Source: Paramecium tetraurelia
Lineage: Eukaryota
Assembly: GCA_000165425.1 (NCBI GenBank)
Contig: CT868063.1
Span: 310,001 to 374,000, forward strand
Reading direction: 5' to 3'
DNA length: 64,000 nucleotides
Shown here: piece by piece, positions 40,329 through 57,261 of the stretch
Layout: every line of letters starts with the position of its first letter
Position numbering within the stretch: the first letter of the stretch is position 1
The notes under the pieces: generated by a model
Database searches by the model: none
What the model was told of the DNA's origin: nothing
What the model saw: only the letters and a program-made list of their open reading frames with translations
Program-made: the position numbers and the translations under genes

Positions 40329-41911
40329 ATGAGATAAAATTCTGATTCATGCTTTAGTTTCTGTTCCAATAGGTGTAGTTCTTTGTGGATTAATGGATAC
40401 CCAACACTTAAGAATATCTCCTTATCAATTAGTCTTCACAATGTTTCCTTAAGAAATAGCCAGCACAAGATTATAAAGTGTTAGAATGCCATAATATAAG
40501 AAAAATATTTGGTTGTAGATGATAGACATATTAATCTTGAAAATCTATAATTAAAAAGGTATAACATAAAGAATGTAGAAGGATAGATTCCAAACATTTA
40601 ATACCTCAATATTTCTAATAATTTAGATTCTCTTGAAATATTTGGTCCAGAATTATAAATTGATTAGATCTATAATTATTTGAAATTATATACAATATAA
40701 CAAAAATTTGAAGATAATTATTAAATTATCAAACTTTTAGGGAAAGGTTCATTTGCAAAAGTCTATAAAGTGAAAAAAATTCATATAAATTTATAATCAT
40801 AAGATAAATAAGAATATACATATGCCTCAAAAATTTTTAATAAAATTAAGTTGAGATAAAATCAAGAAGAGAACGAAGTAAGCAATTAAATAATTTAATA
40901 GATGAGTTTATGGAAAGAGATTGAAATTATGAGATTGATGAAAAATAAACATATTATCAAATTGTTTGAAGTTTTTGAAGATGAAAAAAAAATATATCTT
41001 CTCTTAGATTTTCTCTAAGGTAGAGATTTACTAAATCACATATATAAAAATGATAATGTATATGATGAAACTCTTGTTCTGAAATTGATGCATAATGTTT
41101 TAAATGGCCTATCATATATACATAGTCACAATATTATTCATCGAGATATTAAACCAGAAAATTTGATACTTAAACAAAAAAATAATATTGAAGACATTAT
41201 ACTTGCTGATTTTGGTTTAGCTGATTTTTATAATCCGGATGGTGATTATTTATTCAAACGATGTGGATCCATAGGATATATAGCTCCTGAGATGTTGAAT
41301 AATGAAAAATATGATTACAAGGTCGATGTCTATTCATTAGGAACGGTTTTCTTTCTTCTATTAACTGGGTAGCAGGCTTTTGAAGGATAATCTTCTTAAG
41401 AAATTTTTACAAGAAATCAGAAAGGAAAAATCGATTTTAAATTGCTAGATCAAACCAATATCAGTTAAGCAGCTAAGGATCTTTGCATGAAGATGTTAAA
41501 ATAAAACCCAATAGAAAGAATTTCCATAGATGAAGCCTTAATTCATCCATGGTTACAAAGGAGGAAATAGAATTTATATGTTGAACCCTTTAAAATCATT
41601 AAGAAACCCACTATTGTCCGAGGACTTAAAGATATAGTAAGATGTAACACTCCTCTTTGGATAAATAAGAGTTTAAAAAGTATTACTGATTCTTCTGATA
41701 ATTAAGATTATTTGAGTAAATTTATGTATTAATTTTAGCCTTTAATGTAAGAGATTAAACAATTCAAGATTTTGTAGATGAGGAACTTTTAAGATAAAAA
41801 CGTGGATCCAACAATTACGATCTAGAAGATGACACAATAGAAGAGGACTAAATGCCCTCATATAATGTCAATAAACATTTTCCTCTAGTAAAACAAAATA
41901 GCTTTCCATGA
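40329..41911 (+). CDS. Ser/Thr protein kinase, CAMK-like, with N-terminal PH-like region
   Basis: LGKGSFAKV, IHRDIKPEN, LADFGLA, RCGSIGYIAPE, YDYKVDVYSLG; same family as 3329-6588. Confidence 0.9.
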
Positions 41912-42038
41912 AATAATTACAAATATTGTCTACTTGAGGTTGAATAATTTCTATATATAAAACATGACATATATTTCCATAAAAAATCATACTCTAAAAT
42001 TGATATTATGATATATTATAAATAATAGTTTCAAGCTA

Positions 42039-43337
42039 TCATTTATCAATTTTTTGATAATTATCTTGAATGATTTGATATTCTGGTTTATTTAGAGTTT
42101 AAGGGAGAATATTATTGAGCATTATTTTTTTTATTATATTTGGCAGTAGTAGGTTCCTTGGCACATTAGTTAAATAAATACCTTCATAAATGAATTTTCC
42201 AGAAGGGATGAGTCGAGCATAATTTTCTGAAGATTTTCCATTTAATTTTTTTAAGTGGGAACCATTAAACTTTTCTTGAATTAAACTGTGTTTAGCAATT
42301 TAGCTTTGGAAGTATAATGTTCTATCTCAATTAATTATTTTTTATCAATCTCAAACCATTTAATATCTCGAACTGATTAGGAATTTAATGCGAATTACTA
42401 TCTCATGTCATAGAATATTTTCATTTTTTTATTAATTTCAAGCATAAAAACTACTAATTCGTAGAATTATAAGGCTATTATACAATATAAGATTTACACT
42501 CTCTAACTTAAAATTATGAATAGGATTCAACCATATCTGAGATTTCATTTCTCAAGAAACCATATTCCAATAGACAGTCCTTATACACTAGGTAAGCTAC
42601 ATCTCTGATAATAAAAGAATTCTGGGTTTTGCAATTAAATAGGAATTTTAAATTTGGGATAAAAGCAAGTTTATAATTAAGCATATTTATAATTTTGAAG
42701 AGCCAAACAAATTATAATTTCCTGTTAAATGTTTCATCTTCATAGGGGTATTGATGGAATTTACAAGAATTATAGATATCCGAATTTTGAGTTACCCTTT
42801 ATATGTAATTGAAATAATTGTTGGTAAATTCAGATTCATTTTAATGAATTTGTTCATAAAATTATAATTACTATATAAATATAATAATTACATCCGATAC
42901 ATTAAGGTACATTGAATTTTAAAATTATGTAGCAATCATTTACTAATCTGACATAATCTAACATGTTTAATTTATATTTGTAGTAGCTGCTGTCTTGGTT
43001 TATATATTTTGTCTGATAGGTTTGATCTCTATTTAATTATATTATTTACTTGATTTTATTCGCAATAATAGACGACCTTGTCTATAACTTAATATTAATC
43101 ACTGCTCAAGATGATATGCAAAGCGTAGCATTTTTTGAGTTGTTCATTAATTGTTTACGGTTGATAATTTAGAACTTATTCTAGTTTTCTCAAGTCTGCG
43201 ATTAATAATTTTGCATCCCTCAATCTTACTTATGTAAATTGTGGATCAAGTATTGAGAATTCAGAAGCCTGATTCTTGGATTTCTATTGAAATTAGGATG
43301 TTGATGATTTAGAGAATATTGACTTTATAAAATTCAT
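42039..43337 (-). CDS. ANTH/ENTH-like domain protein (divergent)
   Basis: LKKCYALHIIL and AYLVYKDCLLEYGFLRNEISDMVE resemble ANTH helices; joining into one gene depends on intron choices. Confidence 0.45.
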
Positions 43338-43380
43338 TTATTAATGAAAATTGTAAAATTCAAATATATAAACACAAGGT

Positions 43381-43731
43381 TCAATGAGTAAATCCGATAG
43401 CTGTTTGTCCAGCTCTTTTGGCAGCTCTGCAAATATCATCTGCCAAAATTGTAGCCCTTCCAGAATAATTAGCATAGATCATCGAATCACGAAGAATGTT
43501 AGAGATGTACAATTTCATATACAATTTAGAGAGTTCATAGACATCTGAACTAATTCTTTTGACTCCCCCTCTTCTGGCCAGTCTTCTAATATCTCCATTA
43601 GAAATTAATCTGGATTTATTTGTATGTTGAGGAAACTTTTTATAGTCTATGTTTCGTCCTTATCCTTTGAGTTTTTAATTGTTCTGCCTGTATTTCATGG
43701 TATTAGATTTGGGTGTCACTTTTGGTGGCAT
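43381..43731 (-). CDS. Divergent histone H4 variant (116 aa)
   Basis: Intronless ORF containing IRRLARRGGVKRIS and a gap-free H4 histone fold ending KRAGQTAIGFTH. Confidence 0.92.
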
Positions 43732-43825
43732 TTGTAATAATTTGAAATTATATTTTTTTTACTGTTGATAATAAATTCATAAATGTAATAATTTATATAT
43801 ATATACAAATAATGACAATCAATAT

Positions 43826-45622
<1,797 letters not shown>

Positions 45623-46651: not shown

Positions 46652-47996
46652 TCATTATAAAAATACAACGTCATCATCATTAAGTTTATTGCTGCTTTCC
46701 TCCAATTAACCACTATAATCTACATATTCAGGTGCAGAATCAGATAGGAAAATAAAGAAATCATCAGATGATTGTTTTATTTATTTCATCTAAATATTAA
46801 TTAACTAAATTACATTTCTCCAAAATTGTAGTAATTCACTTTAATTTCGAATGTAAAATGATAGACCCATAGATGTATCTACATGTTTTTAGTTTAACAA
46901 GTGAATGTTTTTGCAGCTATAAGAAGTTCGGTTGAACATTTTATTTTCATTAATTTGATCCTTGTTTTCAGCTTCCTATACATAATGTGGATCCAAATAG
47001 AGGTAATGATCATTAATTTTTCCAAGTATATAGAATGCTCGTTTCGGTGTACCTCCAACAATACCTTAGAAATACGGTAGCTCCATTATTTCATCTAGAA
47101 TTTTCAAATATTTTTAATTAGGTTCATCCAAACCAATTCTAGTTAAGACAAATATCGCTAAACTGTTTTTGCCAATGAGTTAAGTCTTTTCTAATTGTTC
47201 CTCCAGATCTTTGTCAGTTTCAAATTTGGCTTCAAACATTCTATTCATCAATTAATCAAGAAAGAGACAAGAATCATTAAATACTGACAATTTCAGATTT
47301 TCAGATGCTAAATTCAAAATAATTTATAAAATTAACCTCTAATAGGTATAGTATTATGCAATAGTTCAAGGAGAAATAGAATGTAATTAGGTCTATACCA
47401 CTCTCCTGGATCCAGGTTGAATTCTTTTTTTGCTAAATAAGCAATTTTTTAAATGCTAAATGGACAAATAAAATTATGGGCTTTTTATTTATCCTTACTA
47501 TTTTAGAATTCAATGAACTCCTTATTTTCTTATGAGTCATTATCGGCAAAGGCCAATATAATGTTATCATAATCCTCATCTCTTTTATCTCCATGGTTTT
47601 TAAGATGTTTCTTTAGCATTTAAGCCATGGCCATTTATCCAACTCTAAGCATGCATCCCCATCCAGTATCTGAGATGTAGTTAGATTCTTAAATATAATT
47701 GCTGAATTTACAATATAAAGGCGGATAGTTTCTCCTATATGTAATCCAAATAGTCTCTTGAACTAACTGCTTAATTTTGTTAATGCGATCCTTCGATTAA
47801 AATAAAGTTTACTTCAATTTCAAACTAGTCAATATCAATTCGATGTCCTAATATGTATATTGGGTGATCTGAAGGAACGTTCTTGTTATTCAAATATACG
47901 CTTAGAATGTATTTCAAGTTATAACTACAGATACTTTAAATTTCCTTACATCCAATCTGTTATTACTTCTTTATAATTTTCTTATCTCTAATCCAT
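46652..47996 (-). CDS. ATG4: Autophagy cysteine protease ATG4 (peptidase C54)
   Basis: IWITYRRNYPPL, SDTGWGCMLRVGQM, GEWY, YLDPHYVQ, IDTSMG; acidic C-terminus NDDDVVFLQ. Confidence 0.93.
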
Positions 47997-56618: not shown

Positions 56619-57016
56619 TGGAATCAAAAATATTTGTTAATTGAAGGGGATCAATTAATATTTATTTATTTTATTGATATTTTTTGAGTAAATAAGGTTG
56701 TGAAAGTCAATTCAAATATTATTTAACAATAAGCATTGTAAATTAAATTTGATAATGATATTTTTCAATAAAACAAGAATTACAAGATAGTTAAAGCAAA
56801 AAGAAATCAGAAAAATTATATTCTTTGAAAGCGTAACCTCAATGATTTTATAAATATGAGTATGTAAAATCGTTACAAATATAAGGAAAGAACCACAAAA
56901 CAAAGATTTAAGCAGATATAGATGCTTTATGGATGGATTAACAGGCTTATAGTAAAAATTCGGGAATTTAAAAATATTGAAATATCTAAACAAATATTTT
57001 AAATAATAAATTATCA

Positions 57017-57261
57017 ATGGCTAAGTCAAAGAATGCTACCTCTCATCATAATGCCCGTAAACATCACAGAAACGGTATTAAAAAGCTTCCCAATCAAAGA
57101 TATAGAACATTGAAAGGAGTAATTGTTAATTGTTATCAAAGTGCAACTAAAGATTCGCAAAAAATAGAAGATTTGCTATTAAGAATGATCCTTCCATCAA
57201 AAAGAACAAGAGTGTCGAAACTAGATTAGCCAAAAGAAAAGCAAATAAGAATATACATTGA
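57017..57261 (+). CDS. RPL29: Ribosomal protein eL29
   Basis: [29 protein letters not shown][23-nt intron][12 protein letters not shown]. Confidence 0.96.

Follow-up and report, generated by a model that had tools for sequence, protein, structure and literature searches.

The window, by which we mean the whole stretch of 64,000 nucleotides of Paramecium tetraurelia DNA that was analysed, carries on its minus strand a complete and intronless coding sequence for an H4-like protein (43381..43731), made up of 116 codons and a TGA stop at 43381-43383. Two in-frame TAA triplets, at codons 19 and 24, are read as glutamine (Q19 and Q24), so that it takes the ciliate nuclear code to keep the frame open, and the ORF was translated with NCBI table 6. 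The intact ORF of 116 amino acids that had been proposed for 43381..43731 is thereby recovered, on the minus strand and terminated by TGA. No intron-like stretch of 20-36 nt with the form GTA...TAG was found on the minus strand of 43300-43850. Codons 1-42 (43606..43731, minus strand) encode a basic N-terminal tail that is predicted to be disordered, and codons 43-116 (43384..43605, minus strand) correspond to H4 residues 29-102 and represent the histone fold, as suggested by the sequence alignment and the predicted helices. Under the one-stop ciliate code, 21 ORFs of at least 40 amino acids overlap the interval 42500-44800; hence an open frame alone is no proof of a gene, and the case rests on homology, conservation and RNA. 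The G+C content of the window is 24-32%.

Several other genes surround this coding sequence. Upstream lies a gene for a Ser/Thr protein kinase (43826-45138, minus strand; Pkinase E = 6.3e-18 for the last exon), the stop codon of which is only 94 nt from the ATG of the H4 variant. Its 23-nt intron (44962-44984, GTA...TAG) is spliced out in a contig of the run X4, indicating that X4 is derived from RNA. A second protein kinase gene is located at 40329-42011 on the plus strand (Pkinase E = 5.2e-62), and a fragment of an Atg4-like cysteine peptidase at 46652-47248 on the minus strand (Peptidase_C54 E = 1.5e-32). Downstream of the variant, low and patchy minus-strand RNA coverage (depth 0-2.75) extends over 42400-43300 and over ORFs without a Pfam family; no Pfam family was detected in the overlapping minus-strand ORFs 42936-43475 and 42421-42954. 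A tblastn survey of the 64-kb window with the collected H4 proteins revealed no second histone gene. The tblastn match at 57005-57157 was rejected as a histone, as it falls within a basic ribosomal-protein-like ORF (57017-57160, plus strand, beginning MAKSKN...). Through its basic region this ORF weakly matches H4 tails (E = 0.002-0.03), and it presumably resembles a gene for ribosomal protein L29e.

The RNA data for 42400-45400 comprise three raw oligo-dT runs of one study (X22, X23 and X24) and the contig run X4. The read depth of X22 is 24.7, 27.0 and 21.2 over the three bins of 43410-43712, compared with 1.45 and 2.29 in the flanking bins, while the same three bins have depths of 0.56, 0 and 0 in X23 and of 0 throughout in X24. 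The bins of the upstream kinase gene (43915-45400) vary between 0 and 6.3 across the three runs. For both genes the first mates lie on the plus strand, as a reverse-stranded library yields for transcripts of the minus strand. In X4, the contigs over 43337-43760 have a word depth of 431-2724, against 13.6 for the kinase contig; these depths were used for presence and abundance only, and runs found with the gene are unfit for gene ranking. The transcript spans approximately 43337..43760 on the minus strand, as given by the X4 contigs and by the raw-read depth of X22, which is confined to these bins. It has untranslated regions of about 29 nt (5') and 44 nt (3') and untemplated A after 43337, and its 5' end is approximate in that it coincides with a templated run of eight A's at 43753-43760. 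The variant gene makes a short polyadenylated mRNA, the levels of which are very different between samples. An 80-nt record in X4 links 43337 to 43760 through a run of A's (seven extra A's and the templated A8 at 43753-43760). This join is probably spurious and produced by the poly(A) tail during assembly, and given this record, reads with more than eight A's before 43752 must exist.

Relationship of the protein to histone H4

Histone H4 is normally among the least variable proteins, and the diversity of H4 in ciliates was reportedly treated by Katz et al. in 2004. The protein encoded at this locus is, to judge from its sequence, a genuine and highly divergent H4 paralogue. A phmmer search against the PDB sequences gave 93 distinct matches at E <= 0.01, and the best 60 of these 93 are all H4 chains, with E values among these 60 from 1.7e-17 (7d69_B) to 1.3e-15 and of about 9e-16 for canonical H4. 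The phmmer alignment is gapless and places residues 41-114 of the query on H4 27-100. No gaps occur in the core of our MAFFT alignment either (A3, 40 rows), in which identities were counted over residues 43-116, equivalent to H4 29-102. The core is identical to 13 near-canonical rows of A3, which were picked by hand, at 33-37 of 74 positions, and at 33 of 74 for the rows with animal-like cores (P0254 and P0192). These counts agree with the original prediction, where a gapless alignment to H4 29-102 with 33 of 74 identities had been reported; the motif IRRLARRGGVKRIS that was called perfect there is indeed exact in both alignments, and the substitutions H75Y, K77G, K79A, Y88R, L90A and Y98I as well as the terminal GFTH are all present. 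H4 residue numbers are used here with an offset of 14, in what we take to be the numbering of H4.

The variant retains the DNA-binding motif of alpha1/L1 (IRRLARRGGVKRIS), R45, and R78 and T80 of L2, and K77 and K79 are lost. Compared with canonical H4 (PDB 1AOI, 1EQZ and 3A6N), it also keeps Y72, D85, K91, R92, G94, T96, G99 and F100, but it differs by H75Y, M84D, Y88R, R95Q, L97A and Y98I. No histone-fold family of Pfam scores above its threshold. The best score is that of Histone (PF00125), with 24.6 bits against a cut-off of 26.4 (E = 3.3e-5), and CBFD_NFYB_HMF stays below both its own cut-off and this score. PF15511, which is the precomputed annotation of most H4s, reaches 15.1 bits against 28.1. 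TAF6, CENP-T and CENP-S have an H4-like histone fold in common with the variant, but the Pfam scores of such families are all below threshold (12.9-16.3 bits against 21-29): TAF 12.9 against 21, CENP-T_C 15.1 against 28.1, CENP-S 16.1 against 28 and TFIID-31kDa 16.3 against 29. The neighbours of the variant according to a protein language model are H4 clusters. An AlphaFold2 model built from A3 has helices at 45-53, 56-89 and 97-111 after a disordered tail, and is a mediocre monomer with a mean pLDDT of 70.6 and values below 50-60 in the tail. The top 50 Foldseek matches of this model are all H4 chains, yet with rmsd values of about 9 Å or more, hence the fold evidence adds little beyond the sequence.

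The presumed main H4 of Paramecium is itself very divergent, and the proper yardstick is this protein of 107 amino acids rather than human H4. Several copies of the 107-aa form (UniProt A0BJB4 type; P0021 and P0125-P0129), identical to one another, are found in P. tetraurelia, P. primaurelia, P. octaurelia and P. sonneborni, and it is presumed to be the bulk H4 from its copy number and the names of its entries. It matches the canonical consensus at 42-43 of 74 core positions, while the variant is identical to it at 31-33 of 74. The 107-aa protein starts with AQRNTV... and ends with GRNLLLNND where canonical H4 has GRTLYGFGG, and its tail is three residues longer after AKRHK. It has Q at position 77 and N at 79, and K77, K79, Y98 and the GF end are all absent. 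The 107-aa H4 retains H75, Y88 and AKRHK but ends in LLLNND, whereas the variant changes H75 and Y88 yet retains the C-terminal GF, in which it is nearer to canonical H4. On the other hand, both Paramecium proteins share NGD before the motif and SSD.Y after it in A3, a GQG[K/R] in the tail and the loss of K77 and K79. The common NGD and SSD.Y flanks and the tail GQG[K/R] indicate descent from an H4 of the Paramecium type.

Conservation and descent of the variant family

The protein of the window is present letter for letter in the public protein collections, where it is automatically named 'Histone H4'. Its mates in the 90% cluster are a second P. tetraurelia protein (A0DFC6 / GSPATT00016556001), two proteins of P. 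octaurelia and one of P. pentaurelia. The fold residues 43-115 are identical in these five proteins of the aurelia complex, which differ at 1-4 positions, all of them confined to the tail and residue 116. The gene of A0DFC6 lies on a different contig from the gene of the window and its product differs solely by H116R; most likely the two are partners from a whole-genome duplication.

More distant matches are 69-87% identical and fall into four groups of fragments (76% for P0140, P0278 and P0279; 83-86% for P0280, P0382 and P0282; 69% for P0281; 87% for P0342 and P0384-P0388). In three of the four groups the fragments stop exactly at KR.G, just ahead of Q109 of the window protein, and several begin where this protein has L or V. 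Such ends and starts match those expected from calling a ciliate gene with the standard code, and the four groups are therefore read as probable truncated orthologues. One further entry, P0383, was rejected as a relative; it is a bacterial-type membrane protein of 524 amino acids that was placed by a clustering artefact in one 90% cluster with P0282, a fragment of 47 amino acids. Nothing else above about 50% identity was found with HMMER among 1.84 billion representatives or by a profile search of a word-indexed protein collection. Moreover, the substitutions E53L, F61Y, V70M, T73A, H75Y, M84D and V86I are invariant in every family member that covers them, and position 88 is always R or K.

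In a maximum likelihood tree of 72 core columns, inferred from all 40 rows with none dropped and with a bootstrap that did not converge, the eight variant rows form one clade (support 100/100); its stem measures 1.27 changes per site and the branches within the crown 0.1-0.5. The position of this clade among the other H4s is left open by 26 of the 33 inner branches.

The reads of X22 contain five minor variants, at 43450, 43462, 43591, 43612 and 43717, each in 10-33% of the reads, and the likeliest explanation is that they come from the duplicate copy. Every one of them falls on a third codon position and is synonymous. Of changes made at random, about three-quarters would be expected to affect the protein, so that five synonymous ones out of five are a sign of purifying selection. 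Together with the invariant residues of the family, this implies that the fold is evidently under strong purifying selection after a long burst of change. An unexpressed gene with dN/dS near 1 had been named in the original prediction as an outcome that would speak against it; we instead found X22 mRNA at a depth of 21-27, a fold that is identical in five genes and variants that are all synonymous, a pattern that points to selection.

The tail and the H2B-facing surface

Before I29 the variant has a tail of 42 residues, 14 more than the 28 of canonical H4. The tail contains eight K and three R, has a pI of 10.9 and is predicted to be disordered. The GK acetylation repeats, the K16-K20 basic patch and K20 itself are all missing, and the translated residues 1-42 contain neither GKGG nor KRH, just as the original prediction had described. 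Its designation of the tail as novel applies only in part. The acetylation and basic-patch motifs have gone, but GQG[K/R] and a degenerate KKF persist from the tail of the main Paramecium H4; in A3, GQGR and YKKFP of the variant occupy the sites of GQGK and AKRHK in the 107-aa protein.

The residues that are specific for the variant are distributed over alpha2 (53, 56, 57, 60-62, 70 and 73-77), L2/alpha3 (79, 81, 82, 84, 86-88, 90 and 93) and the C-terminus (95, 97 and 98). In the octamer, H75 and Y98 of H4 have roles in contacts. Among the residues of the four-helix bundle with H2B, Y72 is kept, and H75Y and Y88R/K, together with Y98I at the C-terminus, occur throughout the variant family. 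In a recent preprint, Y72 and Y88 of H4 are described as stacking on Y83 and L80 of H2B in the four-helix bundle (bioRxiv 10.1101/2024.12.31.630874). As Y72 is kept and Y88, which stacks on H2B, is lost, an altered docking of H2B may fairly be expected on structural grounds. The H2B-docking surface had been predicted to be altered, and for H75Y, M84D and Y88R/K, which are conserved across the family, this view holds; K77, K79 and Y98, on the other hand, are also replaced in the 107-aa H4 of Paramecium and hence are not marks of the variant. The comparisons support the view that the H2B-facing changes (H75Y and Y88R/K, with M84D) are a conserved feature of the family and not drift.

We also surveyed 394 H4-like proteins aligned to the core profile, a set that is biased towards similarity to the query and from which the mis-clustered bacterial P0383 was omitted. 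R or K at position 88 is found in 25 of them, and 23 of these 25 also have Y75 and D or E at 84. The full set is carried by 18 proteins of the variant family, three of the P0177 group (P0177, P0389 and P0390), P0168 and P0188, usually together with Q95. The two exceptions are P0164, with Y, M and R at positions 75, 84 and 88, and P0183, with H, I and R. The P0177 group, P0168 and P0188 thus resemble the Paramecium variant in having Y75, D/E84, R88 and mostly Q95 on an H4 fold, but they match it at 29-33 of 73 positions as opposed to 40-43 of 71 for canonical H4, and P0168 and P0188 have long C-terminal extensions, unlike the variant. The set of Y75, D/E84 and R88 that they share with the variant is probably convergent. 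In alpha3, one helical turn separates positions 84 and 88, and we suspect that Y75, D/E84, R88 and Q95 may constitute a compensated alternative interface between H4 and H2B that has evolved recurrently.

Possible roles of the variant

We consider it fairly probable that the gene encodes a functional H4 variant specific for the Paramecium lineage, probably as one of two whole-genome-duplication copies in a genome of the Paramecium aurelia complex. The alpha1/L1 motif, R45, Y72, R78, T80, K91, R92 and a hydrophobic alpha2 are kept, which suggests that H3 pairing and DNA binding are most likely retained; the variant would then still pair with an H3-type histone in a handshake dimer and bind DNA. 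Its rebuilt H2B-facing surface (H75Y, M84D, Y88R/K, R95Q, L97A and Y98I) may dock H2A-H2B, or variants of these, in a different way; the C-terminal strand is changed as well. Regulatory factors that read the H4 tail would find no GK repeats, no K16-K20 patch and no K20 on the variant, which would thereby escape deposition acetylation, K16ac, K20me and the stimulation of ISWI-type remodellers through the basic patch. Its production would come in bursts, at times that call for a specialised chromatin state. Dedicated partners are available for such a protein: the H3 proteins of P. tetraurelia number ten, among them the divergent H3v1 and H3v2, the role of which is given as unknown (PMC4770206), and the species reportedly has 6 forms of H2B and 9 of H2A (PMC4122937).

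A special case of this explanation, and the idea of the original prediction, is that the variant acts in the germline or in development, where it would build chromatin for DNA elimination during meiosis or in the new macronucleus, with H3v1/H3v2 or an H2B variant. Between samples of one study its expression varies by a factor of more than 40 while that of the neighbouring gene is steady, divergent H3v1 and H3v2 do exist in P. tetraurelia (PMC4770206), and the degenerate basic patch may make its particles poor substrates for ISWI; however, no such role for the variant was found in the literature searched, and we regard this as a tentative possibility. The on/off expression could equally follow DNA replication or growth state. 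It is thus also conceivable, albeit unlikely, that the variant is an ordinary second isoform of H4 that is coupled to replication and placed in bulk chromatin beside the 107-aa protein, since its mRNA is abundant or absent depending on the sample, the behaviour expected of S-phase histone genes when growing and starved cultures are compared, and the match of the 107-aa H4 to the canonical consensus at 42-43 of 74 positions shows that this lineage tolerates change in H4. Against this, no more than 31-33 of 74 core positions agree with the 107-aa H4, the tail and the H2B-facing surface differ, and the separate conservation of the two proteins argues for distinct roles.

The loss of the canonical H2B contacts H75 and Y88, of the tail motifs and of scores above the Pfam cut-offs, together with weak sub-threshold matches to TFIID-31kDa, CENP-S, CENP-T_C and TAF, would also agree with a non-nucleosomal protein with a histone fold derived from H4, such as a TAF6-like or CENP-T/S-like subunit or a chaperone-bound decoy. 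We find this improbable, because those Pfam matches have E values of 0.011-0.13 compared with 1e-15 to 1e-17 for H4, and because no member of the family departs from the DNA-contact motif of alpha1/L1 or from R45, R78 and T80, a constancy that is hard to explain without H4-like DNA binding. Open frames are common under the one-stop code, but a decaying duplicate, a pseudogene or a chance ORF has next to no probability here; it is ruled out by a fold that is 100% conserved in five genes of three named species, by orthologues at 69-87% identity, by an abundant, bounded and polyadenylated mRNA and by minor variants of which five out of five are synonymous.

Within the favoured reading of a lineage-specific variant, the protein may supply the H4 component of a dedicated, stage-specific nucleosome that partners a divergent H3 or H2B and marks chromatin for elimination or protection, a proposal that we hold to be rather doubtful. 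Partner variants of H3 and H2B would be fitted to the rebuilt interface (Y75, D84, R88 and Q95), and production would be limited to a stage of the life cycle such as meiosis or the development of the new macronucleus. A tail devoid of acetylation sites and the basic patch could make such chromatin invisible to ISWI-type remodelling and to readers of the H4 tail. If this is true, the same set of residues elsewhere would represent a recurrent way of building an alternative H4-H2B interface.

No description of an H4 variant in Paramecium was found in the literature searched, nor were the identifiers GSPATT00016556001 and A0DFC6, and the gene identifiers are absent from those supplements of PMC3091696 that were examined. 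In a survey from 2014, the number of distinct H4 proteins in P. tetraurelia was put at 5 from a search with Pfam at E < 1e-6 (PMC4122937); with E = 3.3e-5 under the current Pfam model, the variant may be outside these five. As it falls below the Pfam histone cut-off, domain-based catalogues of histones may have missed it. The protein is an unusually divergent H4 variant and a tractable candidate for a specialised nucleosome, and its host is a model organism in which genome rearrangement depends on chromatin. It combines strong divergence from H4 with a fold that is identical in five genes of three named sibling species and with expression that is switched on and off. Moreover, it offers a test by nature of which surfaces of H4 tolerate rebuilding, since the tail and the H2B interface appear altered while the elements for DNA binding and H3 pairing seem to be retained.

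H4 variants are rare and are called 'few' and 'infrequent' in reviews (PMC3380720 and PMC8015243). Those described differ modestly from H4, whereas the Paramecium variant shares less than half of the fold residues. The trypanosome H4.V, which is named as an H4 variant in the first of these reviews (PMC3380720), and human H4G are, like the variant studied here, rare and lineage-specific H4 paralogues. Human H4.7/H4G has a polyadenylated transcript and, through its alpha3 and C-terminus, forms less stable nucleosome-like particles (PMC8015243). The same review gives H4G as 85% identical to H4 (PMC8015243), in comparison with about 45% in the fold for the Paramecium variant, and there is no sign of a common origin. 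A scan of metagenomes with P0279 returned solely L001, an unrelated H4-like gene that is 44% identical. In L001, the interval 1325-2101 on the plus strand encodes a protein of 258 amino acids whose H4-like fold, the part that is 44% identical to P0279, lies at the N-terminus and is followed by a long Pro/Thr-rich repetitive extension.
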